Virus record (IMG/VR): IMGVR_UViG_3300025084_000176
Location: 1-26,922 of that record
DNA: 26,922 nucleotides
Direction: 5' to 3' (one strand)
Source: a virus
Lineage: Duplodnaviria > Caudoviricetes
Below the pieces are notes generated by a model, which searched no databases, was not told the DNA's origin, and saw nothing but the letters and a program-made list of their open reading frames with translations. Below, piece after piece: positions 3,075 to 16,814 of the stretch. Each line of letters opens with the position of its first letter. Position 1 is the first letter of the stretch. A program made the translations under genes and the position numbers.

Positions 3075-3082
3075 ATACTATT

Positions 3083-3091
3083 ATTATACCA
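3083..3091 (-). promoter_or_regulatory. Extended -10 promoter (TGGTATAAT) immediately upstream of terS
   Basis: Perfect TGnTATAAT on the - strand, 8 nt before the terS ATG; no canonical -35 and no SD. Confidence 0.6.
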
Positions 3092-3118
3092 TAAATTTAA
3101 ATTAGTTATCCCTTCATT

Positions 3119-3193
3119 CCTAGAATTCTTACAAAGTTTTCTTTTACCAGTATATATATACTATTAGTTTGGTTCTTTGGGGCTCATTCTAGG
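3119..3193. repeat. Nested inverted repeat centred on palindrome AGTATATATATACT
   Basis: CCTAGAAT (3119-3126)/ATTCTAGG (3186-3193), CAAAG (3132-3136)/CTTTG (3175-3179) and the palindrome at 3149-3162 share a centre near 3155-3156. Confidence 0.7.
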
Positions 3194-3197
3194 TACT

Positions 3198-3206
3198 ATT
3201 ATACCA
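3198..3206 (-). promoter_or_regulatory. Second extended -10 promoter (TGGTATAAT) for the packaging/late arm
   Basis: Identical TGGTATAATA on the - strand, directly followed by the 3193-3119 inverted repeat. Confidence 0.55.
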
Positions 3207-3372
3207 GATAATATCTAAGTAATTATGCATAGTGCCGAAAATAGTTGGTTATGCAAGGTACTACATTGAAAAAATAAGAATTTTATATGTGGGTTCCTTT
3301 GCCCGATGGAGAAATTTTCTCAGAAGGGTGGGTACCCCTCGCCTTTCCACGCTTTCCGCCCACGCATATTCT

Positions 3373-3637: not shown

Positions 3638-3862
3638 ATGAATGACCTAATAAAAGCAATCAAAGAAGTAGAGCAAAGAACTAATACGCTAGGCTATGCA
3701 CTAGTAGAGACATTGAATGGTAACTATGTGCTCAAGCCACTAGCCAAAGCAGAGGCCAGAGGCGATAGCATAGAGATGGAATTCTGGGGCCCAGATATGG
3801 ACAGTATCAAGGCTCAGAAAAAAGAGCATATTGCTCAAATGAAAGCCGATGGCTTACTATAA
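3638..3862 (+). CDS. Early hypothetical protein (74 aa)
   Basis: Strong CCAAGGAGG SD; first ORF after the early promoter. Confidence 0.8.
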   Translation: MNDLIKAIKEVEQRTNTLGYALVETLNGNYVLKPLAKAEARGDSIEMEFWGPDMDSIKAQKKEHIAQMKADGLL

Positions 3863-3880
3863 TTAATGGAGGATAATAAA

Positions 3881-4240
3881 ATGGAAAACAAGGAAATTAG
3901 AACAATGATTAGCAAGATACCAGCACCTAAAGAACTACACTTCTGGACAGGTGATGGGAATACATACTATTGTGAATGGAACTCAGTCCGCAAGGGATAC
4001 CCTCAAGGATGTATTGATATTAAATGCAAGGGCGGTCATATGACATACCTATTTCATCTCACTGAGGTTGAGACTGATGAGTATGAGATAAAACCAGCCT
4101 TTAACTGGAAGCAAGGCACTCCATCCCTTGAGATTGTTGAAGCCTATGTTGAGAACTGTGCAGATAGTATCTGGAAGACTATGTATTACTTCAAGCATAT
4201 GCAGGATGTAGCCAGAACGATAATGAGAAGCAGTAAATAG
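3881..4240 (+). CDS. Early hypothetical protein (about 119 aa)
   Basis: The ORF track starts at 3866, but GGAGG at 3868-3872 favours the ATG at 3881. Confidence 0.75.
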   Translation: MENKEIRTMISKIPAPKELHFWTGDGNTYYCEWNSVRKGYPQGCIDIKCKGGHMTYLFHLTEVETDEYEIKPAFNWKQGTPSLEIVEAYVENCADSIWKTMYYFKHMQDVARTIMRSSK

Positions 4241-4256
4241 GCCTTAAAACGGTCCA

Positions 4257-4290
4257 ACCTACCAAGCCCCTACCAAGGGGCTTTCTAGGT
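4257..4290 (+). terminator. Conserved early intergenic stem-loop, copy 1 (terminator-like or RNA processing site)
   Basis: ACCTA-CC-AAGCCCC-TACCAA-GGGGCTT-TC-TAGGT; U tract is short. Confidence 0.6.
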
Positions 4291-4345
4291 GAAAAAAGGG
4301 CAAGTTTGGACCCCTCAAGAGCCAAGCGAAATATAAGGATATAAC

Positions 4346-4576
4346 ATGACACAAAAAGAACTAGAACAAGCCTTGATAAGGCTAGCAGAAATTGAGCCTA
4401 CTGGAGTAGTAGCTGGGCTCATCTATGAGAGTGAGCCGGAAGATACATACTGTGAGCACTGTGGCCAGCCTACTGGCTATGGTAAAGGCTCAGAGCCTAG
4501 CCGATATGATACGATGGTATGCTCTACAGAGTGTGCCAAGGAACTCTTCCCTAATGACTATAACTGGAGCAAATAA
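4346..4576 (+). CDS. Small Zn-finger protein (CxxC...CSxxC, treble-clef/YacG-like spacing)
   Basis: YCEHCGQP...VCSTECAKE; AAGGA SD. Confidence 0.75.
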   Translation: MTQKELEQALIRLAEIEPTGVVAGLIYESEPEDTYCEHCGQPTGYGKGSEPSRYDTMVCSTECAKELFPNDYNWSK

Positions 4577-4920
4577 TGAAAGCATGGAAAAACAGAACTA
4601 CACTACCAATAGATAATTACACTGGGACTATCTTTAAAATTCAAATGAGATTACCGCATAAGCATGTTAATCATTTATACACTGTAAACATGGGTGCTCA
4701 TTTAATGACTAATGAAGATACGGAAGAGGTTACAATCTGCACATTTGATGATAGAACTGTAACCTATAAAATGGGCCATACTTACTCAAGCCCTGCCACT
4801 CTTCAAGAGATTGCAGACTGGGTAGCTGAAAAGATTGATGAGAATGCCCGAATTAATGCGGAGTATGACAGAGAGATGATTGAGGAGGAATACCTGCAAA
4901 GGAGCGGTAATATTTACTAG
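4576..4920 (+). CDS. Early hypothetical protein (114 aa)
   Basis: TAATG stop/start coupling to the previous gene; GGAG SD. Confidence 0.75.
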   Translation: MKAWKNRTTLPIDNYTGTIFKIQMRLPHKHVNHLYTVNMGAHLMTNEDTEEVTICTFDDRTVTYKMGHTYSSPATLQEIADWVAEKIDENARINAEYDREMIEEEYLQRSGNIY

Positions 4921-4933
4921 GCCCTAGGCCTGC

Positions 4934-4965
4934 CCTACTAAGCCCCTTAATTGGGGCTTTTTAGG
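4934..4965 (+). terminator. Conserved early intergenic stem-loop, copy 2
   Basis: CCTA-CT-AAGCCCC-TTAATT-GGGGCTT-TT-TAGG; same architecture as 4257-4290. Confidence 0.65.
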
Positions 4966-4987
4966 TAACTAAACCAAGGAGGTAAAA

Positions 4988-5602
4988 ATGTATAAAAAAG
5001 ATAATAAAATAATCGCAGATTTTTTGCTGGCCAGCCCAGACAATATGGTAAGGGGTTTTACTTTTGTGTTGCTATCAATCCAGCAACCAACTCAAGGCCT
5101 AGCAGATAAAATGTTTGAGGTAGACCAGCAGGGCCCAGAATGTAGGCATTTAAACTATGGCTTAAAGCGTGCAGGCTTTGAGTATGTAGAGGCTCATAAA
5201 CAGGCCATATTTGAGAGATTAACTGAATATGTAGGCCAAGGCCTTGATGATGTAGAAAACATCTCAAAAGCCCTGCTTTATGTTTACGATACGCCAAACC
5301 TAGGAATGGTTAAATCTGCATTTGTGCTCCAGCTACTAGGATTTAATGTTTCTTGCATTGATAGTCATAATCTTAAACGCCTAGGCTGGAAACAATCGCA
5401 AGTATCATTGCCTAAAACCTTAAAGCATGAGTCCAAAATGCGAAAGATTAGAGCCTATGTATCCCAGACTCAACAAAAAGGGACCGCTTACTGGTGGAAT
5501 AGCTGGTGCCATTATGTAGCAGGAAACATAGCCAATAAGAAATTGACTACAGGCCAGCAGGTTAGTAATTATCACATTGAGGCCATTTTACCCAAGGCCT
5601 AG
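4988..5602 (+). CDS. HhH-GPD superfamily DNA glycosylase/AP lyase-like protein
   Basis: TPNLGMVKSAFVLQLLGFNVSCIDSHNLKRLG resembles the HhH plus catalytic Asp segment of EndoIII/Ogg-type glycosylases (G.G.K.A...D.H); N-terminal FVLLSIQQ helix; AAGGAGGT SD. Confidence 0.65.
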   Translation: MYKKDNKIIADFLLASPDNMVRGFTFVLLSIQQPTQGLADKMFEVDQQGPECRHLNYGLKRAGFEYVEAHKQAIFERLTEYVGQGLDDVENISKALLYVYDTPNLGMVKSAFVLQLLGFNVSCIDSHNLKRLGWKQSQVSLPKTLKHESKMRKIRAYVSQTQQKGTAYWWNSWCHYVAGNIANKKLTTGQQVSNYHIEAILPKA

Positions 5603-5708
5603 GTATTACCCAACCAATAAAAGTCGCTAGAATAGAAGATTTGGAGCCCAGTTATCCAAGCTGGGCCAGGATTTCCCATTTATTTTCAATTTATTTGCAT
5701 TTTAGGGG

Positions 5709-5738
5709 TTGACAGGATTTATAGATTCGTGCTAAAAT
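5709..5738 (+). promoter_or_regulatory. Second early sigma70 promoter
   Basis: TTGACA (5709-5714), 18-bp spacer, TGc-TAAAAT (5733-5738); T-rich UP-like tract upstream. Confidence 0.75.
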
Positions 5739-5777
5739 TCTTACCAGAAATTAAATAATAATACCAAGGAGGTAAAA

Positions 5778-5942
5778 ATGTCGTTTAGAAAAATGTTTAC
5801 AGAACACTTAGTAATAGAGGGATGGAGCAATTGTTGTGATGCTCCAGTATATACTCCCAATACAGATGGGATAGGGCTTTGCTCACATTGTGGTGAGTGG
5901 GCTGAAATTGTACAAATTGAGGAGGAGGATGCTGATGAGTAA
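5778..5942 (+). CDS. Small Zn-ribbon protein (54 aa), missed by the ORF track
   Basis: MSFRKMFTEHLVIEGWSNCCDAPVYTPNTDGIGLCSHCGEWAEIVQIEEEDADE; AAGGAGGT SD; first gene after the promoter. Confidence 0.8.
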   Translation: MSFRKMFTEHLVIEGWSNCCDAPVYTPNTDGIGLCSHCGEWAEIVQIEEEDADE

Positions 5943-6168
5943 AGAAAAGACTATAAAAATTATGGGTTATTTTGACAAGGAAGTTGAGAAAACCAAGGAA
6001 CAATATATAAATATATGGATTGAGAATGCCTCTCTATCCAGATTGTGTATTTGTGATGGAGGTGAGGCCTTTGACCATACCTATGAGAAAGTAAATTTTC
6101 TTAAGGATGAGATAAAGAAACTTGCTGAGTTTAACTGGGATTATATGTACAAGGAGCAACATGGATAA
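5935..6168 (+). CDS. Early hypothetical protein (77 aa)
   Basis: In frame with track ORF 5890-6168; GGAGGAGG SD favours the ATG at 5935. Confidence 0.75.
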   Translation: MSKEKTIKIMGYFDKEVEKTKEQYINIWIENASLSRLCICDGGEAFDHTYEKVNFLKDEIKKLAEFNWDYMYKEQHG

Positions 6169-6346
6169 TTATACTAAAATGAATAGAGAAATCAATGACT
6201 TAGCTAAGAAACTATCTAAGATAGATAATACAGAGGCTAAGCAAAAGCTAACATTTCATGGTAAGAGACAATACAGAAACTCCAGAAGTCCTCTTGACAT
6301 GACACCAGCACAGGAAAATGCATGGTTAAGAAGTGGAGGATTTTAG
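6161..6346 (+). CDS. Early hypothetical protein (61 aa, basic)
   Basis: AAGGAG SD before ATG 6161; overlaps the previous stop. Confidence 0.7.
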   Translation: MDNYTKMNREINDLAKKLSKIDNTEAKQKLTFHGKRQYRNSRSPLDMTPAQENAWLRSGGF

Positions 6347-6748
6347 GTGCCTAAGAATTTACATAAGGAATATGTTTTAGCTGATAGGTCTATTGTTACT
6401 ATTGCTAGAATTATGGAGGCAACTGGGCTCAGTTATGTTGGTGCTTATAGCAGGCTCCAGCGTTCTGCCCAGCCAGATTACATATGGGCTGAGATGGGGC
6501 ATGGAGGCAAGCAACTGCAGACTTCAACAAAGAAATGGAAAAATGAGCCAGATGAGGTCGTTGCAGGGATACAATTGAAAGCCAGCTGGATGGATGGCAT
6601 GTTGCATACTCTTGCTGGCCCTCCACATGATAGACATGGGCTTGTGATGACCAAAAAGGATGTTAGGTCTTTGCTAGCCTATCGTGAAGAGATGCGTCAG
6701 CAGTGGCGTGATGGTAATAATAATATAAAAAATAGGGAGGATGTATGA
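6347..6748 (+). CDS. Putative HTH DNA-binding protein
   Basis: GTG start with GGAGG SD; N-terminal TIARIMEATGLSYVGAYSRLQR is HTH-like. Confidence 0.6.
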   Translation: MPKNLHKEYVLADRSIVTIARIMEATGLSYVGAYSRLQRSAQPDYIWAEMGHGGKQLQTSTKKWKNEPDEVVAGIQLKASWMDGMLHTLAGPPHDRHGLVMTKKDVRSLLAYREEMRQQWRDGNNNIKNREDV

Positions 6749-6966
6749 GTACATTTAAATGGTTAAATGAATTAGAGAAAGAAATAATTAGGAAAAATAC
6801 TGTAAAAAAAGCCCTAAGAAAAGAGATTGATGCTAAAATAGAGCAACTAAGGGCCCTTGAAATTGACTTAGAAAAGACAGTTGAAAAGGCGTTAGCTACA
6901 GGCCAGCCCAGTCGAGAGGATGTAGAGTGGGACTTGATGGATAAACGAATAAATGGAGGAAAATAA
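6745..6966 (+). CDS. Hypothetical coiled-coil protein (73 aa)
   Basis: ATGA overlap with the previous gene, GGAGG SD, heptad-like K/E/L pattern. Confidence 0.75.
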   Translation: MSTFKWLNELEKEIIRKNTVKKALRKEIDAKIEQLRALEIDLEKTVEKALATGQPSREDVEWDLMDKRINGGK

Positions 6967-7127
6967 TGAAAGTAATAATTGAGACAATAAATGAGTCCGG
7001 TGAAAAAGAATTCCAACTGTCAGATGGCGAAGTTGGTAAAAGAACATACTCTATTGACTTTGAAAGTATGGATGATTTAGAAAAATATATAACGGAGGAA
7101 AATGATGGATGCACTAGAAACACTTAG
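6966..7127 (+). CDS. Small hypothetical protein (53 aa)
   Basis: MKVIIETINESGEKEFQLSDGEVGKRTYSIDFESMDDLEKYITEENDGCTRNT; GGAGG SD; TAATG coupling. Confidence 0.7.
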   Translation: MKVIIETINESGEKEFQLSDGEVGKRTYSIDFESMDDLEKYITEENDGCTRNT

Positions 7128-7272
7128 AGAGTTAGGAATGAATGTATATGATGGCTCAGATATTGAGTTCTTCTTGAAATATGGTATAACATTAACAATG
7201 TTGATGGGTGACGAGCCTATACCAGAAGAAACACTTAAAAAAATACAGGAGGATTATGCCAAATCCAAATAA
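7102..7272 (+). CDS. Small hypothetical protein (about 56 aa)
   Basis: MMDALETLRELGMNVYDGSDIEFFLKYGITLTMLMGDEPIPEETLKKIQEDYAKSK; GGAGG SD. Confidence 0.7.
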   Translation: MMDALETLRELGMNVYDGSDIEFFLKYGITLTMLMGDEPIPEETLKKIQEDYAKSK

Positions 7273-7465
7273 TAATAAACATTTCAATGATGAGGCCCTA
7301 AGGATTAATAGGTCTTTGAAAAAAGAAAATGACGCTTTAAGCGAGATTGTAGATGAGTTTGAACACTATCTATTAAACTATAATGTAACTAGTTCTGCAG
7401 ATGATAGAGAGATTGGCAGACTACAAGATATGATATATAAAGTAAGGAGTAGAGATAATGATTAA
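7256..7465 (+). CDS. Small hypothetical protein (69 aa)
   Basis: AGGAGG SD favours ATG 7256 within track ORF 7208-7465. Confidence 0.7.
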   Translation: MPNPNNNKHFNDEALRINRSLKKENDALSEIVDEFEHYLLNYNVTSSADDREIGRLQDMIYKVRSRDND

Positions 7466-7631
7466 GAGAGATATTAATGGTGTACCTTATACCTATGAAA
7501 ATAAGGATGAGCTGGCCTTTGGCACAGACTTTGAGGATAGTTGGGATAATGCTATAGCATACGCCCACTATGTTATGACTACGCCAGAGTTTGAGAAAGA
7601 TATGAAAGAATGGCTGGATAAGAATGACTGA
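7458..7631 (+). CDS. Small hypothetical protein (57 aa)
   Basis: MIKRDINGVPYTYENKDELAFGTDFEDSWDNAIAYAHYVMTTPEFEKDMKEWLDKND; AAGGAG SD. Confidence 0.7.
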   Translation: MIKRDINGVPYTYENKDELAFGTDFEDSWDNAIAYAHYVMTTPEFEKDMKEWLDKND

Positions 7632-7830
7632 TATTAATAGTATGACTGGAAGAAATTGGGAAGTGGACCATGAACTGGTAGATGTAGCATTAATGCTTAA
7701 GAAGTACAGAAATCTACAATATGATGCAGACTTTGAAGAAAATATAAAAGATTATAACTTCTACAAAGCTAGGGCAGATTACTACCAAGAACTTGTTGAC
7801 AAAGGACAGGAATATGACCCACAATTTTAA
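7624..7830 (+). CDS. Small hypothetical protein (68 aa)
   Basis: Track ORF; overlaps the previous stop; tight operon packing. Confidence 0.7.
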   Translation: MTDINSMTGRNWEVDHELVDVALMLKKYRNLQYDADFEENIKDYNFYKARADYYQELVDKGQEYDPQF

Positions 7831-7851
7831 TTACATAGGGAGGTAAATAGG

Positions 7852-8016
7852 ATGTATCATTGTAATAAATGTTATTATAAACCAAACGAACAAGAGGGAT
7901 GTTTTACTAATGATGTAACTAAGTTTATTATGGAAAACATACCGCCCTGTTTGGATGGAACTTGGCATAAATTTAAGCCAGAATTTAATAAAATAAAATT
8001 GCATAACATAAAATAG
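7852..8016 (+). CDS. Small Cys/His (Zn-finger-like) protein (54 aa)
   Basis: MYHCNKCYYKPNEQEGCFTNDVTKFIMENIPPCLDGTWHKFKPEFNKIKLHNIK; GGAGGT SD. Confidence 0.65.
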   Translation: MYHCNKCYYKPNEQEGCFTNDVTKFIMENIPPCLDGTWHKFKPEFNKIKLHNIK

Positions 8017-8026
8017 TTGGTACAAT
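7999..8026 (+). promoter_or_regulatory. Sigma70-type promoter for the replication module
   Basis: TTGCAT (7999-8004), 16-bp spacer, TGg-TACAAT (8021-8026). Confidence 0.6.
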
Positions 8027-8094
8027 ATATCTATGTATGGTTACTATGAAGTTGTTAAGTATATATATACTACTAGTAATTCATACATAGATAT
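8027..8094. repeat. Long inverted repeat enclosing palindrome AGTATATATATACT
   Basis: ATATCTATGTATG (8027-8039)/CATACATAGATAT (8082-8094) is a perfect 13-bp pair, extended by TTACTA/TAGTAA; palindrome at 8058-8071. Confidence 0.8.
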
Positions 8095-8105
8095 TCTTAG
8101 TATTT

Positions 8106-8154
8106 CTAAGAGTGCATTGAGTTTTTACTTCCATTTTTCTTAATGCACTTTTAG
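8106..8154 (+). ncRNA. Candidate structured RNA: 16-bp hairpin with a pyrimidine-rich anti-RBS loop
   Basis: CTAAGAGTGCATTGAG/CTTAATGCACTTTTAG with two G.U pairs (consistent with a + strand RNA); loop TTTTTACTTCCATTTTT. Confidence 0.5.
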
Positions 8155-8215
8155 TAGTATTAAGCTACTAGGTAGCCCAGCCTTTGGGTAGAATGTTAAC
8201 TATAAGGAGTTAAAT

Positions 8216-8602
8216 ATGAGTGAGATGTTACCACTAACAGGTGAAGTTGTTTTCAATAAATTAACTACACCAGATGTCTTTATGGGTACGAGTAAGTACA
8301 CACTTACAATTGCCTTAGATAAGGATGGTAAGAAACTAGCAGAGAAGAACGGTCTTAAGACTAATGATTATGAGGGTAAGACACAGATTACTTCTAAGCG
8401 TAAGATAGACTTTGGTCAGCCCAAGGTTTACAATGCTGATAAGGAGGAAGTTGATGCCTCTCATGTATCTTTATTTGGTGATAAGGTTACGATGCTAGTC
8501 AAGAAAGGTAAAGCACCTTACGATGCTTACACATACCTAGAGAGAATCCGAGTGGATGAAAAGGCTGAGGGTGTGGAGGAGTACGACCAAAGCGAATTCT
8601 AA
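8216..8602 (+). CDS. Single-stranded DNA-binding protein, T7 gp2.5-like
   Basis: Precedes the primase-helicase; KYTLTIAL, ITSKRK and PKVYNA motifs; acidic C-tail ending in Phe (EEYDQSEF). Confidence 0.75.
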   Translation: MSEMLPLTGEVVFNKLTTPDVFMGTSKYTLTIALDKDGKKLAEKNGLKTNDYEGKTQITSKRKIDFGQPKVYNADKEEVDASHVSLFGDKVTMLVKKGKAPYDAYTYLERIRVDEKAEGVEEYDQSEF

Positions 8603-8618
8603 CTGGTCGTAAAGTCAT

Positions 8619-8644
8619 GGGCTACTATCATGGTAGCCCTTTTT
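8619..8644 (+). terminator. Rho-independent terminator/attenuator after SSB
   Basis: GGGCTACTA-TCA-TGGTAGCCC followed by TTTTT. Confidence 0.75.
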
Positions 8645-8665
8645 ATTTAAAGTAAGGGAGTTAAA

Positions 8666-10306
8666 ATGGATAATAAACTAATCCGAAAGGAGCAGTGCCC
8701 CGACTGTGCAAAGATGGGGAAAGATACAAAAGGTGATAACCTTGCTGTCTATGATGATGGCCAAACTCACTGCTATGCTTGTGGCACACATGGTCATGTA
8801 ACACACAAGAGCAAGCCAATACAAATCAAAGATGCCAGCTGGATGAAAAACTACAGAGGGGATTACTATTCTCTTCCAGATAGAAAGCTAAGGGCCGAGA
8901 CTTTAGAGAAGTATAAGGTTAAATGTGAGAAGAATAACAAGGGTGAGATAATTAAGCACCACTACCCATACCACAACCAGAAAGGTGAGATGGTGGGTAT
9001 CAAGACTAGGACCGTAGCTAACAAATCATTTCGAGGATGGGGTGATACTAGTAATACCAACATGCTATTCGGTCAAAACTTATTTAAAGCTGGAGGCAAA
9101 TTCCTTACCATCGTAGAGGGTGAGTTGGATTGTTGTTCGGCCTATGAAATGTTTGGTAGTAGATGGCCTGTTGTTTCTATTAACAATGGTGCTAACTCTG
9201 TATCGAATATAAAAAATAATTTAGAGTGGATAGATTCTTTTGAGACTGTGGTCCTATGCTTTGATGATGATGAGGCAGGCAGGGATTCAGCTAAGCAGGT
9301 GGCACCAATACTGGGACCAAACAAGTGTAAGGTATTGACACTAGCCAAGCATAAGGATGCAAGCGATTACCTAGCTAATGGGGATAGTAAAGCATTCTAT
9401 GATGAGTGGTGGAATGATGCCAAAGAGTATACAGTTAGCGGTGTAGCTACCATTGAAGAGATGAGAGAGGCTTTGCTTGACTATCAGAATACAGAGCTGG
9501 TGCCATTGCCAGATTCCTTTGGGGATTTGAATCACATGATGCGTGGTGGCATAGCCAGAGGAGAGCTAGTATCTATTGTGGCACACACTAGTATCGGTAA
9601 GACTACTATACTTAACGAGCTCATCTACCACTTTGCCACACAAACTAATGAGAGGATTGGATGTTTCATGGTAGAGGATAACATTGATGAGACAATCCGA
9701 AAGGTTGTGAGCGTGCACACTGCAGAGAATTTACAACTGGTCAAGCCAACAGATTTAAATGTGGATGTCATCATGGAGTCTGCAATTGATATTGGCTTTG
9801 GCTCAAAGATACAACTACATAATGATGGTGGTGGTAGTATTGATATTGATGAGATGTTTTCTAAGATAAGATACTTTGTAAAGGGATTGAATTGTGGTAT
9901 TATTTTGGTGGACCCATTGCATACTGCAATCAAGAACTTAAGCAACGAGAATATCGAAGAGGTTATGGACAGATTCATTAAGCTATGTAAAGAGACCAAG
10001 TGTGCAGTGATACTCAGTACACATACTAGAAAGCCAGACGATGGCTCTCATCCTCACAAAATTAGCGAATATGATGTGAAAGGTAGTGGAGCAATACCGC
10101 AGGCTTGCCATACAAATATATTATTCTCTAGGGATAAGCTAGCTGAGGATGAGTACACAAAGAACTCAACAAGGATAAGGGTGCCTAAGCTAAGAAGAAC
10201 TGGACAGACTGGTGAGGCTGGATGGGCCTACTTCAATCCAGAGACTGCCAGACTAGAGAAAGGAATCAATCCAGATATGGGAGGGTCAGATGCCTCAGAC
10301 TTTTAG
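8666..10306 (+). CDS. DNA primase-helicase, T7 gp4-like
   Basis: Zn finger CPDC...CYAC, TOPRIM IVEGELD/FDDDEAG/KDASDYL, SF4 helicase Walker A AHTSIGKTT, DVKGSGAI, KLRRTGQTG. Confidence 0.95.
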   Translation: MDNKLIRKEQCPDCAKMGKDTKGDNLAVYDDGQTHCYACGTHGHVTHKSKPIQIKDASWMKNYRGDYYSLPDRKLRAETLEKYKVKCEKNNKGEIIKHHYPYHNQKGEMVGIKTRTVANKSFRGWGDTSNTNMLFGQNLFKAGGKFLTIVEGELDCCSAYEMFGSRWPVVSINNGANSVSNIKNNLEWIDSFETVVLCFDDDEAGRDSAKQVAPILGPNKCKVLTLAKHKDASDYLANGDSKAFYDEWWNDAKEYTVSGVATIEEMREALLDYQNTELVPLPDSFGDLNHMMRGGIARGELVSIVAHTSIGKTTILNELIYHFATQTNERIGCFMVEDNIDETIRKVVSVHTAENLQLVKPTDLNVDVIMESAIDIGFGSKIQLHNDGGGSIDIDEMFSKIRYFVKGLNCGIILVDPLHTAIKNLSNENIEEVMDRFIKLCKETKCAVILSTHTRKPDDGSHPHKISEYDVKGSGAIPQACHTNILFSRDKLAEDEYTKNSTRIRVPKLRRTGQTGEAGWAYFNPETARLEKGINPDMGGSDASDF

Positions 10307-12023
10307 TTGTGATATAGAAACTGATGGTATCGAGGCTACTACAATCTGGTGCGTGTGTGTGCATAATACATACACTCAAGAGACAAAGGTATTCTATAAG
10401 GCTGAGGAGTTTAAGGAATGGCTGGAGGATAGGAGTATATGTCATACCCTAGTCTTTCACAATGGCATAGCTTTTGATGTGCCTGTGCTGGAAGAACTTT
10501 GGGGCATAGATTTTAAGGATGTCTTTATACATGATACTCTTTTACTGAGTCAGCTGGACAATCCAAGAAGAGAGGGCGGTCATTCCTTATCTAGCTGGGG
10601 TGAGTACCTAGACTATCCTAAAGGGGAGCATGAAGACTGGTCCAAGCTCAGCACAGAGATGGTAGATTATTGTATTACAGATACAGAAATAACTAGCAAA
10701 GTATATAAGATACTAATGCAGAAAGGATTAAGTAAGGATGCTATTGAACTAGAGTATTCTACTAAAAGACAATGCTCAATACAAGAAAAAAATGGGTGGT
10801 TGTTTGATGAGCATGGTGCTATGCATTTACAACAAAGAGTTAATGAGGACCTAAGAAAAGCAGAGCAGGAAGTACATAAGACTTTTGCACCTTTGCCTGT
10901 ATGGGTCAGCAAGAAACCAGTAGAAAATAGATTTAATGCAGATGGTAGGAGGTCTAAGTATTACCAAGATGAGGTAGACCTTGGTTGTTATACTAATGAT
11001 GACGAGGACTATGGGTATTGGACTTATCCGGAATTAAATTTAGGTAGCAGGCAACAAGTAGGCAGACATCTTATGCATTATGGCTGGAAGCCTAGTATAT
11101 TTACAGAGACTGGTAAGCCTAAGGTAGATGAGTCCACACTTAAGGATGTGGATATTCCAGAGGCACAGCTGATAGCTAGATACTTAATGCTACAGAAAAG
11201 ACAGGGCCAGATTAAAGGATGGTTGGATGCTCTGGATGAAAGAACTGGTAGAATACACAGTCGAGTTCATACTATGGGCACTGTCACACACCGCATGTCT
11301 AGTAGTAATCCTAATTTACAGCAGGTAACAGCTAGTAGTAAAGAATATGGTCCAGAGATGAGAGCATTATTTACTGTGCCAGAGGATAAGGTACTGGTAG
11401 GTGCTGACTTATCTGGTCTGGAGCTAAGATGTCTAGCACACTATATGAATGACAAGAACTATACAAAAGAAATACTGACTGGTGATATACATTCTGCCAA
11501 TCAAAAGTCAGCTGGTCTGGATACAAGGGATAAGGCCAAGACATTTATATATGCATTCTTATATGGTGCAGGAGATGCTAAGATAGGTAGCATTGCTGGT
11601 GGCGGTGTACCAGAGGGAAAGGAACTTAAAGAGAACTTCTTAAACAATACACCAGCCTTAAAGAAACTAAGATACAGGGTGAATAAGGCATCTGATAAAG
11701 GATACTTGAATGCTTTGGATGGTAGGAAAGTTAGGGTTAGGAGTGAGCATGCATCCCTTAACTTCCTGCTCCAGAGTGCTGGTGCTATCATAGCCAAGAG
11801 AGCTTGGGATATTTTTCATGGTCTTGCACAATATGAGGGTTTAAAGTACAAGCAGATTGGTGTCATTCATGATGAGATTCAGATTGAATGTAATCCAAAT
11901 GATGCAGACTACATTGGTATGCTTATTGTAGATGCCATGAAAGAGACAACAAATTATTATAAACTAAACTGTCCAATAACTGGGGAGTATAAAATAGGGA
12001 GGAGCTGGAATGAAACGCACTAA
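10290..12023 (+). CDS. DNA polymerase family A, T7 gp5-like (3'-5' exonuclease plus polymerase)
   Basis: ExoI DIETDG, ExoII HNGIAFD, ExoIII YCITD; motif A DLSGLELR, motif B RDKAKTFIYAFLYG, motif C IHDE. Confidence 0.96.
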   Translation: MPQTFSCDIETDGIEATTIWCVCVHNTYTQETKVFYKAEEFKEWLEDRSICHTLVFHNGIAFDVPVLEELWGIDFKDVFIHDTLLLSQLDNPRREGGHSLSSWGEYLDYPKGEHEDWSKLSTEMVDYCITDTEITSKVYKILMQKGLSKDAIELEYSTKRQCSIQEKNGWLFDEHGAMHLQQRVNEDLRKAEQEVHKTFAPLPVWVSKKPVENRFNADGRRSKYYQDEVDLGCYTNDDEDYGYWTYPELNLGSRQQVGRHLMHYGWKPSIFTETGKPKVDESTLKDVDIPEAQLIARYLMLQKRQGQIKGWLDALDERTGRIHSRVHTMGTVTHRMSSSNPNLQQVTASSKEYGPEMRALFTVPEDKVLVGADLSGLELRCLAHYMNDKNYTKEILTGDIHSANQKSAGLDTRDKAKTFIYAFLYGAGDAKIGSIAGGGVPEGKELKENFLNNTPALKKLRYRVNKASDKGYLNALDGRKVRVRSEHASLNFLLQSAGAIIAKRAWDIFHGLAQYEGLKYKQIGVIHDEIQIECNPNDADYIGMLIVDAMKETTNYYKLNCPITGEYKIGRSWNETH

Positions 12024-12270
12024 TGAATTTAAGGTTGACTGGAATGAACACAGAATCCCAGACAAAATTAACCCAGAGCATTACACACAGGGTATAGAAT
12101 GTATTGATTATATTACCTCAAAGAACATGAGTTTTCTTGAGGGCAATGTGGTAAAATATGTCACTCGATACAGAATGAAGAACGGACTAGAGGACCTAGA
12201 AAAAGCTAAGTGGTATTTAGACCGTTTAATAAGGGATTATAACAAGGGAGAAAAGAATGAAAGTATCTAA
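12010..12270 (+). CDS. DUF3310 family protein (T7 gp1.7-like nucleotide kinase domain)
   Basis: INPEHY...IECIDYI...FLEGNVVKYVTRY..KNGLEDLEKAKWYL signature. Confidence 0.85.
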   Translation: MKRTNEFKVDWNEHRIPDKINPEHYTQGIECIDYITSKNMSFLEGNVVKYVTRYRMKNGLEDLEKAKWYLDRLIRDYNKGEKNESI

Positions 12271-13096
12271 GAGCTCAATGCTGAGCCCCAGTAAAAGCAT
12301 TCATACATTAATACCAGATGTGTATGAAGTAATGAAGTCAAAGGAATACTCTGGAGACTTAAGTTCTATAGCTATGCAAGCAGGTCGTGAGGTAGAGGAT
12401 GCAATTAAGAATGCATTTGAGCCATACGAGCAGAAGAACGAGTTAAGAATGTCTGGTATAGGAAGATGCGAAAGAGCACAATGGTATGGAGTTAAGGGTT
12501 ACACACCAGAAGAGATAGATGGTAATGTATACTTGACTTTCTTACAAGGCCATGTGCTTGAGGCTGTGCTAGTGGCCTTGGTAAAACTAGCAGGACACAC
12601 TGTCGAGGACCAACAGAAGAAACATACTGTTGAGGGTGTCAATGGCTCACAGGACTGTACTATTGATGGTGAGCTAGTAGACATAAAGACAGCGAGTGCT
12701 TGGTCTTGGGATAACAAGTTTACTGAGACAGGTATAAAAGATGATGGCTTTGGATACATTAAACAGCTATCAGCTTATGGTAAGAATGACAACAGAAAGC
12801 ATGGATACTTCCTAGCTTTGAATAAAAACAAATCAACTCTTAAGTTGTGCAAGCAAGAACTAGAGCAGGATGTTGATACTTTTATTGTTGACTTAAAAGA
12901 TAAGATGGAATCTGATACACCGCCAATGCGAATAGCTAACGCTACTACCTTAACTAAGAATGGTGAGGAAAAGTTATGCATGACTTGCTCATTCTGTGGA
13001 TTTAAGGAAGACTGTTATGGGAGTCTAATAGCTAAGCCTATTCCGTCTGGCAAGATAACTAATTATTTTGTTGACAATACAGGAGCCAGCTTTTGA
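12257..13096 (+). CDS. Cas4-like PD-(D/E)XK exonuclease with probable Fe-S cluster
   Basis: LRMSGIGRC, GSQD...VDIKTAS, QLSAY, and C-terminal CSFCGFKEDC (one N-terminal plus three C-terminal Cys). Confidence 0.8.
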   Translation: MKVSKSSMLSPSKSIHTLIPDVYEVMKSKEYSGDLSSIAMQAGREVEDAIKNAFEPYEQKNELRMSGIGRCERAQWYGVKGYTPEEIDGNVYLTFLQGHVLEAVLVALVKLAGHTVEDQQKKHTVEGVNGSQDCTIDGELVDIKTASAWSWDNKFTETGIKDDGFGYIKQLSAYGKNDNRKHGYFLALNKNKSTLKLCKQELEQDVDTFIVDLKDKMESDTPPMRIANATTLTKNGEEKLCMTCSFCGFKEDCYGSLIAKPIPSGKITNYFVDNTGASF

Positions 13097-13254
13097 AACA
13101 GCTACCAGAGTTAAAGGCTTACATTGCAAAGACATATGACACTTGTCTTATATGCGATGAGTTAGAGATAGAGCCAGAGGATTTACTAGATGCATTTGAA
13201 AATAAACTAATAGAAAAGAAAGATAGATTTCTAGAAGATTTTGAGGAGATATAA
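13093..13254 (+). CDS. Small acidic hypothetical protein (53 aa, TTG start)
   Basis: MKQLPELKAYIAKTYDTCLICDELEIEPEDLLDAFENKLIEKKDRFLEDFEEI; AGGAG SD; fills the gap exactly. Confidence 0.75.
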   Translation: MKQLPELKAYIAKTYDTCLICDELEIEPEDLLDAFENKLIEKKDRFLEDFEEI

Positions 13255-13464
13255 ATGGGAATAGAATATATAATAATATGTAGTGTACTAATAATAGCAG
13301 GAGCTGTTACTGTATATTTTACAAACAAACAATCATATGAGAAAGGTATTACTACTGCTGTGTTGTTACACAGGAATGGAAGACTAAAGTATTATGATTA
13401 CTACGATGAACAAGGCGAAAAAATGGTTGACATTGAAATCGCACCACTAGAGGATGAAGAATGA
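13255..13464 (+). CDS. Small membrane-anchored protein (69 aa)
   Basis: N-terminal hydrophobic helix IEYIIICSVLIIAGAVTVYF; GAGGAG SD. Confidence 0.75.
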   Translation: MGIEYIIICSVLIIAGAVTVYFTNKQSYEKGITTAVLLHRNGRLKYYDYYDEQGEKMVDIEIAPLEDEE

Positions 13465-15407
13465 ATACACTACCAAATGACTACCAAAATTTTATAGCAC
13501 TGAGCAGATATGCTAGATGGCTACCAGAAAAGAATAGAAGAGAGACATGGAAAGAAACAGTAGCTAGGTACTTTGACTTTATGGAAGTACACTTGAAAGA
13601 GAATACTAACCAAGAGCTAATACCTAAGACAAGAAAGATATTAGAGGATGCAGTATGTAATCTAGAAGTTATGCCAAGCATGAGAGCTTTGATGACAGCA
13701 GGTAAGGCACTGGAAGATAATAATATAGCTGGATACAATTGTGCTTATCTAAGTGTTGACCACCCCAAGTCATTTGATGAGGCCCTATATGTATTGATGC
13801 ATGGTACTGGTGTAGGCTTTAGTGTAGAGAGACAGTTTGTTACCAAGCTACCAGAGGTACCAGAAGAGATGGTAGATGTTGATGATGTCATTGTTGTACA
13901 GGATAGCAAAGAGGGATGGCAGTCTGCTTTCCGTAAACTTATTACATACCTGTATGATGGTGAGATGCCTAAGTGGGACTTCTCAAAGATAAGACCAAAG
14001 GGCTCAAGGCTTAAGACATTTGGTGGCAGGGCTAGTGGACCAGAGCCCTTGCTTGACCTGTTTAATTTTGCTACTAATTTATTTAAGGATGCAGTAGGTA
14101 GGAAGCTAACAAGTTATGAGTGTCATCGCATGATGTGTAAGATTGCAGAGGTTGTTGTCGTTGGTGGTGTTAGACGTAGTGCATTGATTTCCCTCAGTAA
14201 TTTGACTGATGAGCGTATGCGTAATGCTAAGTCTGGACAGTGGTGGTCAGAAACACCAGAGATGGCACTCAGTAACAATAGTGTATGCTATACAGAGAAG
14301 CCAGACATAGGAATCTTTATGAAAGAATGGACTTCATTGTATGAGTCTAAGTCTGGTGAGCGTGGTATCTTTAACAGAGAAGCGGCAATTAAACAAGTAG
14401 CATCTATAGGCAGACGTGACACAGACCATGACTTTGGATGTAATCCTTGCAGTGAAATCATCCTCAGAGATGGCCAGTTTTGTAACTTAACAGAGATAGT
14501 AGTACGGGCAGAAGACACACAAAGAGATATACTCCGTAAGGCAAGATTAGCCACCATACTGGGCACATTTCAAGCAAGTCTTACAAACATTAAAAGACTT
14601 CGACCTAAGTGGGTTAAAAATACAGAAGAAGAATCTTTGTTAGGAGTGTCATTAACTGGTATAATGGATAACAGTTTCATGAATGGCTCTGTGGACAAGG
14701 AAGCCTTACCTAAATTCCTTGAGAAAGTTAGAAAAGAAGTAGTTGAAATTAATGCTCATTGGTCAGAACTACTAGGCATTAACCAAGCTACTGCAACCAC
14801 AGCCATTAAACCTAGTGGCACAGTCAGTCAGTTAGTTGACAGTGCTAGTGGTATACACACTAGACATAACGATTATTACTTTAGAAGAGTAAGAGCAGAT
14901 GCTAAGGACCCTATTGCACAGTTAATGGAGGACCAAGGCATCCCTTGTGAAGCTGATGTAATGAAACCCAATAGTGTCAAGGTCTTTACTTTTCCAATGA
15001 AAGCACCAGAGGGTGCTGTGCTTAGGAATGAGAGGACTGCTATTGAACAGCTAGAACTATGGCTCATATACCAGAGACATTATTGTGAGCATAAGCCTAG
15101 TGTTACGGTCAGTGTAAGAGAACACGAATGGATGCAGGTAGGTGCATGGGTGTATGAACATTTTGATGAGGTAAGTGGAGTTAGTTTCTTGCCACACTCA
15201 GACCATTCATACCAGCAAGCACCTTATGAAGACTGTACCAAGAAAGAATACAACGAGCTTGCTAAGAAAATGCCTAAGTCTGTTGACTGGGATTTGATTA
15301 GTGAATATGAATTAACAGATACTACTGTAGGAACTAAGACACTGGCTTGTACTGGTAGTGTGTGTGAGTTAGTTGACTTGGTAGAAGAAGAAAGAGAAAT
15401 AGAATGA
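13461..15407 (+). CDS. nrdJ: Ribonucleotide reductase class II, adenosylcobalamin-dependent (monomeric RTPR-type)
   Basis: YNCAY, GTGVGFSV, SGPEPL, GGVRRSA, catalytic NPCSE, FCNLTE, IKPSGT, C-terminal CTGSVC dithiol; no NrdB radical subunit gene in the arm. Confidence 0.88.
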   Translation: MNTLPNDYQNFIALSRYARWLPEKNRRETWKETVARYFDFMEVHLKENTNQELIPKTRKILEDAVCNLEVMPSMRALMTAGKALEDNNIAGYNCAYLSVDHPKSFDEALYVLMHGTGVGFSVERQFVTKLPEVPEEMVDVDDVIVVQDSKEGWQSAFRKLITYLYDGEMPKWDFSKIRPKGSRLKTFGGRASGPEPLLDLFNFATNLFKDAVGRKLTSYECHRMMCKIAEVVVVGGVRRSALISLSNLTDERMRNAKSGQWWSETPEMALSNNSVCYTEKPDIGIFMKEWTSLYESKSGERGIFNREAAIKQVASIGRRDTDHDFGCNPCSEIILRDGQFCNLTEIVVRAEDTQRDILRKARLATILGTFQASLTNIKRLRPKWVKNTEEESLLGVSLTGIMDNSFMNGSVDKEALPKFLEKVRKEVVEINAHWSELLGINQATATTAIKPSGTVSQLVDSASGIHTRHNDYYFRRVRADAKDPIAQLMEDQGIPCEADVMKPNSVKVFTFPMKAPEGAVLRNERTAIEQLELWLIYQRHYCEHKPSVTVSVREHEWMQVGAWVYEHFDEVSGVSFLPHSDHSYQQAPYEDCTKKEYNELAKKMPKSVDWDLISEYELTDTTVGTKTLACTGSVCELVDLVEEEREIE

Positions 15408-15550
15408 ATACTATAATATTAATAATAGCCTTGCAGATTGTTGTTGTCACCTTAGCAGGATGTACTACACTACAAGACAAGATGGAAGAGCAGAGACATT
15501 TAACTTGTAACCCACCACACGATACTTTGTGTATAGGTTGGCATATATGA
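15404..15550 (+). CDS. Small lipoprotein (48 aa), missed by the ORF track
   Basis: MNTIILIIALQIVVVTLAG-CTTLQDKMEEQRHLTCNPPHDTLCIGWHI: hydrophobic signal plus canonical LAGC lipobox; ATGA overlap with nrdJ. Confidence 0.7.
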   Translation: MNTIILIIALQIVVVTLAGCTTLQDKMEEQRHLTCNPPHDTLCIGWHI

Positions 15551-15675
15551 GAGTAAGTCTAATGCGTAAGCTATGGAAAGAAAAGGTAGAGGTGCCTGCT
15601 CTAGAGAAAAAGATAGAGAAAATCCTCAAGGCGATAGATGTTAAACTAAAAGAAAGGAGTAAAGATGTTAGATAA
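15547..15675 (+). CDS. Small basic hypothetical protein (42 aa)
   Basis: MRVSLMRKLWKEKVEVPALEKKIEKILKAIDVKLKERSKDVR; ATGA coupling; fills the gap. Confidence 0.5.
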   Translation: MRVSLMRKLWKEKVEVPALEKKIEKILKAIDVKLKERSKDVR

Positions 15676-15907
15676 AATCAAGAACGGAGCTGATGGTGCG
15701 ATAGATGTTGGTATCAAACTAATTAGCCTGTCTATTATACTGCAGATTATCTTTGGACCAAAGGTAGCATTCCTAACCGGAGATGTAATCGGCTCTATAC
15801 TAGGCATAGTTTGGACTTTAGGAAACGGTGGACTGGCTGGCATAATCGCAGCTGTCATAATCTGGAGACTACTCGACAAAGACATAGTCGATGAACTCAA
15901 AGACTAA
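15665..15907 (+). CDS. Small integral membrane protein (2-3 hydrophobic helices)
   Basis: AAGGAG SD; hydrophobic Gly-rich helices (IKLISLSIILQIIFG; GLAGIIAAVIIWRLL). Confidence 0.75.
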   Translation: MLDKIKNGADGAIDVGIKLISLSIILQIIFGPKVAFLTGDVIGSILGIVWTLGNGGLAGIIAAVIIWRLLDKDIVDELKD

Positions 15908-16025
15908 AGCTAAAACAACTTGGGGTCTTGTCCGCATGGATGGGACTTCCAAGTTGTACCTAGAACTTAAGAAGAAAAAGAAAGAAACTAACCCACGACT
16001 TTGGCAATCAGACTGGAGAAAGTAA
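15891..16025 (+). CDS. Possible small basic protein (44 aa)
   Basis: MNSKTKAKTTWGLVRMDGTSKLYLELKKKKKETNPRLWQSDWRK; TAATG coupling to the next gene, but no SD and it overlaps the hairpin. Confidence 0.4.
   Translation: MNSKTKAKTTWGLVRMDGTSKLYLELKKKKKETNPRLWQSDWRK
15915..15957 (+). other. Long RNA hairpin right after the membrane-protein gene
   Basis: ACAACTTGG/CCAAGTTGT perfect 9 bp, continued by GGTCTTGTCC-GCAT-GGATGGGACT(T) with 4 G.U pairs and one bulge; no U tract. Confidence 0.6.
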
Positions 16026-16438
16026 TGAAGCACAAAGGTATATTACCACTACCTGTATTTAGCAAGGGTAGGGGTGAGAAGAAAAGGGAACTCATGGTTA
16101 GTCTAAACAATTTCTTTCCTATGCATTACATACAAAAGAATAATGTAAAGCAGGCGTACCACGCAACAGTGAAAGAATGGGTAAAGACATTACCCAAGTA
16201 CAAGACAATACAACCAACCTACAAATTATTTTTTAATAACAAAAGAAAGAAAGACCTAGATAACTATACATTTCCTATGCATAAGTTTCTTATGGATGCT
16301 TTAGTAGAGAATAATATTATTGAAGATGACCACTATGAATATGTTACCAAGATTACTACTGAGTTTGGTGGCCTAGATACGGACAACTATGTTGTCGTAG
16401 AAATAAAAGGAGAAGAGCATGGGACTGAACAAGAGTAA
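16025..16438 (+). CDS. RusA-like Holliday junction resolvase
   Basis: KKDLDNY...KFLMDALVENNIIEDD catalytic motif; ATG 16025 (GGAG SD) preferred over TTG 16001. Confidence 0.8.
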   Translation: MKHKGILPLPVFSKGRGEKKRELMVSLNNFFPMHYIQKNNVKQAYHATVKEWVKTLPKYKTIQPTYKLFFNNKRKKDLDNYTFPMHKFLMDALVENNIIEDDHYEYVTKITTEFGGLDTDNYVVVEIKGEEHGTEQE

Positions 16439-16814
16439 GGATATAAAAGAGATGCGTAAGTTTGATGTTGACTTAGAGTTTGGTCAGCAATGGGAAAAGC
16501 ACATAGATGAAATGTTTTCCGGGGCCAAGACTTGCGAGATAAAAACAGAGAGAGATAAGTGGGCGAGTACAGGTAACATCTGTATCGAGATTGAAAGCTA
16601 TGGTAAACCATCCGGACTAACCAGTACAGAGGCAGAGCTCTGGGTCCATAACTTGGTAAAGGATGGTGAGTTGTGCTGTAGTCTAGTCTTTAATACTGAC
16701 AAGCTAAGAAAGATAATGTCAGATATGAAACCTTATACTGTCATGGGCGGAGACCACAAAGCCTCTAAGCTATATTTAGTTAATATTCAAAAGTTACTAG
16801 CTAACTGCTCTTGA
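16419..16814 (+). CDS. PD-(D/E)XK/restriction-endonuclease-fold phage protein
   Basis: FDVDLEFGQQWE...CEIKTE...TGNICIE...GKPSGLTSTEA pattern with an E-x-K core. Confidence 0.6.
   Translation: MGLNKSKDIKEMRKFDVDLEFGQQWEKHIDEMFSGAKTCEIKTERDKWASTGNICIEIESYGKPSGLTSTEAELWVHNLVKDGELCCSLVFNTDKLRKIMSDMKPYTVMGGDHKASKLYLVNIQKLLANCS

Follow-up and report, generated by a model that had tools for sequence, protein, structure and literature searches.

A conserved structured RNA in the ssb leader of uncultured marine phages that may pair with the primase-helicase translation start

The DNA analyzed here, referred to as the window, comprises positions 1 to 26,922 of the IMG/VR record IMGVR_UViG_3300025084_000176. 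It comes from an uncultured marine phage whose podovirus-type genome is organized in two gene arms, one on the + strand that carries the early and replication genes (3638-16814) and one on the - strand that carries the structural genes. PHROGs assignments in the window include a primase-helicase, a family A polymerase, a Cas4-like exonuclease, a ribonucleotide reductase (RNR; marked as B12-dependent by Pfam), RusA, terminases, and a portal protein. Related records are 41-47 kb in length. There was no DNA match among 50,697 phage records and no close cultured phage; the nearest proteins are 33% (primase), 53% (terminase), and 62%-64% (RNR) identical. A GTDB scan gave a single weak Streptomyces match, and neither a host nor a prophage was found. 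Searches of five records for a T7-type RNA polymerase returned no match, as did the controls, and no large early ORF was found in the gene calls of the complete record G004.

The hairpin of interest lies within a 199-nt gap (8017-8215) upstream of a 128-aa gene. The structure model of the encoded protein (pLDDT 84.9) matches the single-stranded DNA-binding proteins (SSBs) of phage Enc34 and T7 (gp2.5), with Foldseek hits to 5odj (E 5.5e-6) and 1je5 (E 3.3e-4), and the protein has both the OB fold of solved phage SSBs and an acidic tail with a terminal Phe. Upstream of the ssb Shine-Dalgarno (SD) sequence, the motif UGUUAA(C/U) (window 8194-8209) is kept across the loop-bearing clades and is similar to the T7 g10 enhancer. 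A TATAAT box directly precedes the ssb terminator hairpin (window 8590-8640) in many relatives, suggesting that the primase may have its own promoter, and one relative (L008) carries, between the ssb and primase genes, an additional ORF of 135 aa that has a promoter-like sequence to itself. On the other side of the gap, a 54-aa gene (7852-8016) is absent in close relatives, and X1 and X19 contigs without it show a 168-nt skip (window 7829-7996). At some distance, the small terminase gene (window 3075-3096, - strand) looks leaderless, with GGTATAAT 8 nt before the ATG and without an SD, and its start is similar in the four relatives examined. Upstream of it (3120-3260, - strand) there is a TTGCATAAC box and a AGTATATATATACT palindrome, like those at the ssb promoter and at the hairpin H1 described below; the fold of this region is not significant (z 0.85).

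Table 1. Features at the ssb leader and sites considered as targets of the hairpin loop
Feature	Position	Strand	Basis or remark
RBS of a 204-aa early gene (Ogg-HhH-like lead)	4978..4988	+	match not conserved
RBS of a 54-aa Zn-ribbon-like early gene	5768..5778	+	-13 to -15.6 kcal/mol, 5/5 clade A
Predicted host sigma70-type promoter (TTGCAT, 16 nt, TG-extended TACAAT)	7999..8026	+	sequence reading
H1, long irregular hairpin at the leader 5' end	8027..8094	+	z -4.3
H2, 25-bp hairpin	8096..8164	+	folding, covariation
H2 lower stem, a with b	8097-8111 with 8149-8163	+	
H2 upper stem	8112-8121 with 8139-8148	+	
Single-stranded U/C-rich loop, CUUCC core (anti-SD-like)	8122..8138	+	unpaired probability 0.99
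Alternative helix b:c, 8151-8158 with 8164-8171	8151..8171	+	excludes lower stem
Predicted RNase III cut or reverse-transcriptase stop, 5' edge of ssb contigs	8164..8165	+	stem foot
ssb initiation region UGUUAAC...AAGGAG...AUG, poor pairing with loop	8194..8218	+	
ssb, 128-aa single-stranded DNA-binding protein, Enc34/T7 gp2.5 fold	8216..8602	+	structure model
Intrinsic terminator-like hairpin 3' of ssb	8619..8645	+	terminator scan
Primase-helicase initiation region GGGAGUUAAAAUGGA, predicted main target	8656..8670	+	phrog_239

The predicted promoter at the head of the leader (Table 1) is absent from the consensus-scan list. Its TG-extended TACAAT (8018-8026) has a -10 core, TA[C/T/A]AAT, that is kept in all 10 aligned leaders, which suggests that transcription would start near 8032. 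The first hairpin, H1, is variable in sequence among relatives. For the second, H2, the initial annotation had described a 16-bp stem with two G.U pairs and a 17-nt loop, UUUUUACUUCCAUUUUU; both are present as described (-19.0 kcal/mol, z -7.5 on the + strand; -10.5 on the - strand). The hairpin is longer than first noted, however, extending to 25 bp with one U.U mismatch (-27.4 kcal/mol, z -9.0 on the + strand; -11.6, z -2.8 on the - strand), and its structure is far beyond chance. Model R1 gives a single H2 copy per record. H2 does not fit an intrinsic terminator, with its GC-rich short stem, small loop, and U-tract: the terminator scan did not call it, and clade E has CCUU in place of the UUUU that follows the upper stem. 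A promoter within the stem was also rejected, as the candidate, TAGTAT, reads TGGGAT in clade E. The 3' arm can also form the alternative helix b:c, in which 97.9% of cells are paired and two pairs have changed on both sides; it is less stable, by a median of 5 kcal/mol.

Homologous loci were collected by SSB and primase scans (35, 43, the best 80 of 267, and the best 80 of 89 loci, with much redundancy), and 221 of them had enough upstream DNA for a hairpin check. The hairpin was flagged automatically in 201 (in three of which H1 was picked instead), inspection or identity added another eight, and the element is missing from 12. In a quick tree built with IQ-TREE from SSB and primase together (61 rows, SH-aLRT support only, midpoint root), loop-bearing phages form one group of 55 rows with support 95. 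The loopless phages fall outside this group, and their leaders carry other long stems: those of the outgroup (L028-L032, L157, L202, L300) have one to three long, irregular, CUUAG/CUAAG-rich stems.

An alignment of 35 distinct, hand-chosen hairpins (related rows, not independent ones; L274, with a hairpin inserted in its loop, was left out) bears out the earlier suggestion that a + strand RNA is under structural selection. Stem cells are paired in 96.1% of cases, 11 of the 23 pairs show compensatory changes, and the covariation score is 0.380 versus 0.190 in shuffles (reached in 0 of 500), while controls in which the arms were slid had at most 56% of cells paired. The upper stem is 99% paired, with compensatory changes in eight of nine pairs. 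G.U cells number 121 versus 14 for A.C, and two wobble pairs are kept in 34 of the 35 rows. The stem varies freely in sequence, and the exposed loop (unpaired probability 0.99), 13-20 nt long, is conserved, with CUUCC in 31 of 35 rows; in 21 distinct loops, 315 of 359 bases (88%) are pyrimidines. Two members (L271 and L280) keep the stem and have lost CUUCC, and L274-L277 carry a hairpin inserted within the loop. Searches of Rfam 15 with the window and 13 loci gave no match at the gathering score, and the matches by E-value were generic hairpins. Of 119 matches to the exact loop in IMG/VR, 14 close a stem of at least 11 bp, and all 14 belong to this phage group. Among 30 matches to a 5'-arm pattern, L318 and L325 were rejected as chance matches without ssb context. 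The element is a real, conserved, structured phage leader RNA that is absent from Rfam.

Optional sequences occur nearby. A 175-nt insert lies between the hairpin and the ssb RBS in three loci (L188:2268-2450, L240:3268-3450, L263:5305-5490), and its near identity across different clades suggests a recently mobile cassette; no Rfam match was found for it, and its exact motif has one match in IMG/VR. At the same site, other loci have optional inserts of 55-80 nt (L208 at ~1225-1305, L173 and L184 after the hairpin, and L180) with pseudoknot-like complementarity by eye, possibly ribozyme-like, for which no Rfam match at the gathering score was found.

RNase III processes stems in T7-like phage leaders, and the stem here, at 23-25 bp, compares with the helix of at least 11 bp needed for an RNase III substrate. 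We examined Logan contigs from eight of 24 listed runs, which had been chosen using this stretch of DNA. In six RNA runs from six studies, ssb contigs start at 8165 and 8166 (X14, depth 47 and 12), 8171 (X4), 8171 (X18), 8177 (X1, which covers all bins and may contain DNA), 8179 (X15), and 8192 (X17). Among the contigs listed, positions 7800-8149 are uncovered in X14 and X17; runs without hairpin cover were not counted as showing absence of the RNA. The hairpin RNA itself was in none of the contigs examined as a discrete species; a single 2049-nt contig from X19, a run whose kind is not on record, spans the hairpin, and X21 yielded short foreign pieces only. At the other end, contigs in four runs stop at 8581-8643, near the ssb terminator at 8619-8639. 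The edge at 8165-8192 is a weak hint of processing, and contigs cannot fix a 5' end: a reverse-transcriptase stop would predict the same edge as an RNase III cut. When the arms are compared with the weak RNase III consensus WNAGWGNNCWUNNN^ (PMC5141509), the best-fitting of the 20 registers along the 3' arm places the cut at 8164^8165 (mean 6.3 of 8; 2.7% of window 14-mers reach 6 or more), with the consensus C absent in 35 of 35 rows. On the 5' arm, the best register implies cleavage at 8120^8121, with a mean of 6.1 of 8 and the full score of 8 for the window sequence. Because the rows are related, each of these fits amounts to about one observation. The distal box is described as having no conserved sequence (PMC3867540). 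Cleavage at the 3' foot likely separates the hairpin from the ssb message, and the nuclease is probably host RNase III.

What might the loop bind? The initial annotation had proposed that its two halves pair with the RBS and start codons of early genes, shutting off their translation. The complementarities are in place: GGAGGTAAAAA at 4978 and 5768 (11 nt), GGAGGTAAA at 7839, AAAATGGAA at 3878-3886, and AAAATGGA at 8663-8670. Within the window, though, they are no better than those of shuffled loops. Runs of at least 11 nt occur in three of 39 initiation regions, versus a mean of 4.0 in 300 shuffles (P 0.72), and the mean duplex energy is -7.4 versus -7.0 kcal/mol (P 0.26). Nor do relatives support a general early-gene shut-off via GGAGGUAAAAA, as clade B has the loop core of clade A, yet GGAGG in only three of 61 early SD windows. 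The match at the glycosylase-like RBS is lost in four of five relatives with the same ACUUCCA loop core (L004, L007, L008, and L009). The Zn-ribbon RBS fared better, being kept in five of five clade A members, and is a possible secondary target in that clade, judging from these matches; it is also kept in L155, whose loop differs. Swapping loops at the early starts gave p 0.036 by loop type and p 0.085 by clade.

The best comparative target is one that the initial annotation had named in passing, the primase-helicase start. For this comparison, a simple gene-calling script was applied to 11 long records and 40 loci, and loop-start duplexes were scored without accessibility. The primase start ranks first of 25 orthologue groups (clade-averaged), at -10.9 kcal/mol with the phage's own loop versus -9.3 with shuffled loops and -7.3 in the loopless outgroup. 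Pooled over rows that are not independent, it pairs with its own loop at -11.3 kcal/mol, 2.9 beyond the prediction from SD strength, and the ssb start falls 1.9 short of the corresponding prediction. The ssb start also pairs more weakly than it does in loopless phages (-5.8 vs. -8.1). It should be noted that loopless phages pair worse at the polymerase and exonuclease starts too, so the contrast with them is not primase-specific.

Swapping loops among phages gave p 0.051 and 0.011 for the primase in the first tests by loop type, and p 0.003 over eight clades (symmetric 0.0025; a later run 0.0033), some of which (C, F, H) hold only one or two sequences each. All eight diagonal residuals are negative, and leave-one-out p values are 0.0002-0.010. 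With clades merged to five loop states, p is 0.017. Taken as the best of 25 groups, the primase swap has p 0.0021, or ~0.05 after Bonferroni. By side, the SD alone gives p 0.011 and the start alone p 0.095. The fit can be seen in individual clades, with a pairing register that shifts between them, being on the SD side in some and at the start codon in B. In clade B, all 18 loop bases find a partner in AAAAAGUGGAAAGUAAAAA, with a single bulge, the clade D sequence UGGAGGAGGAA forms an 11-nt pairing, the clade E primase GGGAGGA pairs with loop UCCUUCC, and in L025 AAGGGAAG pairs with CUUCCCUU. Where the anti-AUG CAU is lost from the loop (L025/L201, L274, clade E), the primase SD is GGGAAG or GGGAGGA. 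In the window, the loop forms only a modest duplex with the primase start, at -8.9 kcal/mol and in rank 11 of 37. In a genome-wide scan, coding-region sites are as strong or stronger, the top 12 include the primase start in only six of 15 records, and a single near-perfect conserved target was not found. The exonuclease start, also considered (swap p 0.005, 0.019), was set aside as SD-driven and only 0.4 kcal/mol beyond shuffled loops. Taken together, the comparative evidence for a specific primase target is modest.

The reading we prefer, with a probability of roughly 0.45, is that H2 belongs to an antisense RNA processed from the ssb leader, the loop of which pairs with the SD/start region of the primase-helicase gene and damps its translation while sparing ssb. 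Transcription would start at ~8032, the leader would be cut from the ssb message at the 3' foot, probably by host RNase III, and a stable RNA (8033-8164 or 8098-8164) would be released. Pairing of the loop with the primase-helicase SD/start region in vivo would keep primase scarce. As ssb RNA accumulates, the leader would accumulate alongside, giving a high SSB-to-primase ratio. In phages that have them, strong GGAGG(U) early messages may also be trimmed, as lineage-dependent extras. More tentative is the evolutionary form of this proposal, that a lytic-type marine podovirus lineage gained an RNase III-excised ssb-leader antisense RNA that tunes replisome stoichiometry; the loop would then co-evolve with, and repress, the start of the primase-helicase gene, along with early genes that have a strong SD. 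At its boldest, the proposal gives the stem two RNase III half-sites that face outward; only pairing of the loop with a target would complete the upper one, so that target binding would trigger cleavage, and an a:b/b:c switch would gate release.

Several other explanations have to be weighed. That H2 is a processing or stability element of the ssb mRNA, with a loop that serves as a protein-binding site (for S1, Hfq, a nuclease, or some phage factor) or that switches between a:b and b:c, and with incidental SD complementarity, is somewhat unlikely. It would accommodate the RNA edge at the stem foot, the conserved b:c helix, the long stems in leaders of loopless relatives, the chance-level pairings in the window, and the two members without CUUCC, but leaves the clade-matched fit of loop and primase, and the poor pairing at the ssb start, unexplained. 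The broad anti-SD mimic of the initial annotation, which would silence early mRNAs, and those of the host, at the early-to-middle switch, we regard as improbable. GGAGG is indeed common in early SDs and rare in late ones in clades A (51/94 vs. 3/55) and E (76/158 vs. 1/60), the phage's own loop beats shuffled loops on early starts in seven of eight clades (z -2.0 in A, -2.4 in E), and the clade E loop CCUUCCUUA is close to the 16S tail. Against this stand the scarcity of GGAGG in clade B, the unconserved glycosylase match, the early swap by clade, and early starts that pair alike in loop-bearing and loopless phages (-8.0 vs. -7.8).

The remaining two are very unlikely. An operator through which SSB would regulate itself, as in the leader of T4 gene 32, with SSB nucleating on the U-rich loop and repressing its own translation, would fit the position upstream of ssb, and structured RNAs upstream of gp32 genes are reported in PMC10690425; however, the loop is 70-115 nt from the AUG behind structured RNA, inserts of up to ~175 nt are tolerated, the hairpin is missing from the RNA contigs, and no pseudoknot with the ssb RBS is predicted. 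Slimmer still are the chances of a DNA element at the head of the replication module (an origin, a cruciform, or a CTTAG/CTAAG operator array). There are AT-rich palindromes by ssb, primase, and polymerase, and repeated CTTAG/CTAAG boxes, but the one-strand asymmetry of G.U over A.C, the two kept wobble pairs, the 13-20-nt loop, and the RNA edge at the foot speak against such an element.

As an antisense RNA, the element would work like C4 of phages P1/P7 and looks like the cuckoo sRNAs, and fails the defining features of both. C4 is described as leader-encoded and processed by host RNase, with a loop that occludes an RBS (PMC5320573, PMC8198154). Both are phage operon-leader RNAs, and in the present case loop pairing with an RBS and cutting from a longer transcript are predicted. 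In those accounts, C4 is built of three stem-loops with two loops that target, is processed by RNase P, and acts in lysogeny, unlike the one long stem, one pyrimidine loop, putative RNase III-type processing, and replication-gene context here; no match to the C4 family RF01695 was found in the window and 13 loci. The cuckoo (RSs0680/CcsR) sRNAs of Alphaproteobacteria likewise combine variable, covarying stems with a conserved anti-SD-like loop (PMC4615179). As described there, they are chromosomal and have two to four short hairpins with the motif CCUCCUCCC, unlike the single 23-25-bp stem with U4-6 [A/U/C]CUUCC N U4-6 here. That motif occurs in none of 21 distinct loops, and each record has one motif hairpin rather than two to four adjacent ones.

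The T4 gene 32 leader and the csRNAs upstream of gp32 genes share with H2 the placement of a structured RNA upstream of a phage ssb gene. By the account in PMC10690425, these RNAs belong to gp32-type genes, form a pseudoknot, and lie within 25 nt of the gene; the hairpin here is distant, precedes a gp2.5/Enc34-type ssb, and is apparently absent from ssb RNA contigs. The pseudoknot and the unstructured tract to the RBS of the T4 gene 32 operator were not found. T7-like RNase III leader stems are similar in having a long stem and consensus-like boxes ~11 bp from the predicted cut, going by the descriptions in PMC5141509, PMC1540722, and PMC3867540. Unlike those, the predicted cuts here are at the helix ends, and there is a sequence-conserved 17-nt terminal loop. 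Among published motif collections, the relevant portions of Weinberg 2010 place only STAXI, a pseudoknot repeat, near ssb genes. Fremin 2023 lists gp32-upstream RNAs; in four of its supplementary tables there was no match to the motifs and contig ids compared, and its alignments may already list the hairpin.

According to PMC4933390 (2016), functions have been assigned to few of the small RNAs from virulent phages, and our literature search found no phage RNA described as controlling primase-helicase translation. Even if the target proposed here is wrong, a well-supported structured RNA that is absent from Rfam remains, for which sister lineages without the loop and members with a degenerate loop provide natural controls. 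If the preferred reading is true, this would be a compact case, testable with reporters, in which a processed ssb leader sets the SSB-to-primase output in a widespread uncultured marine phage group.
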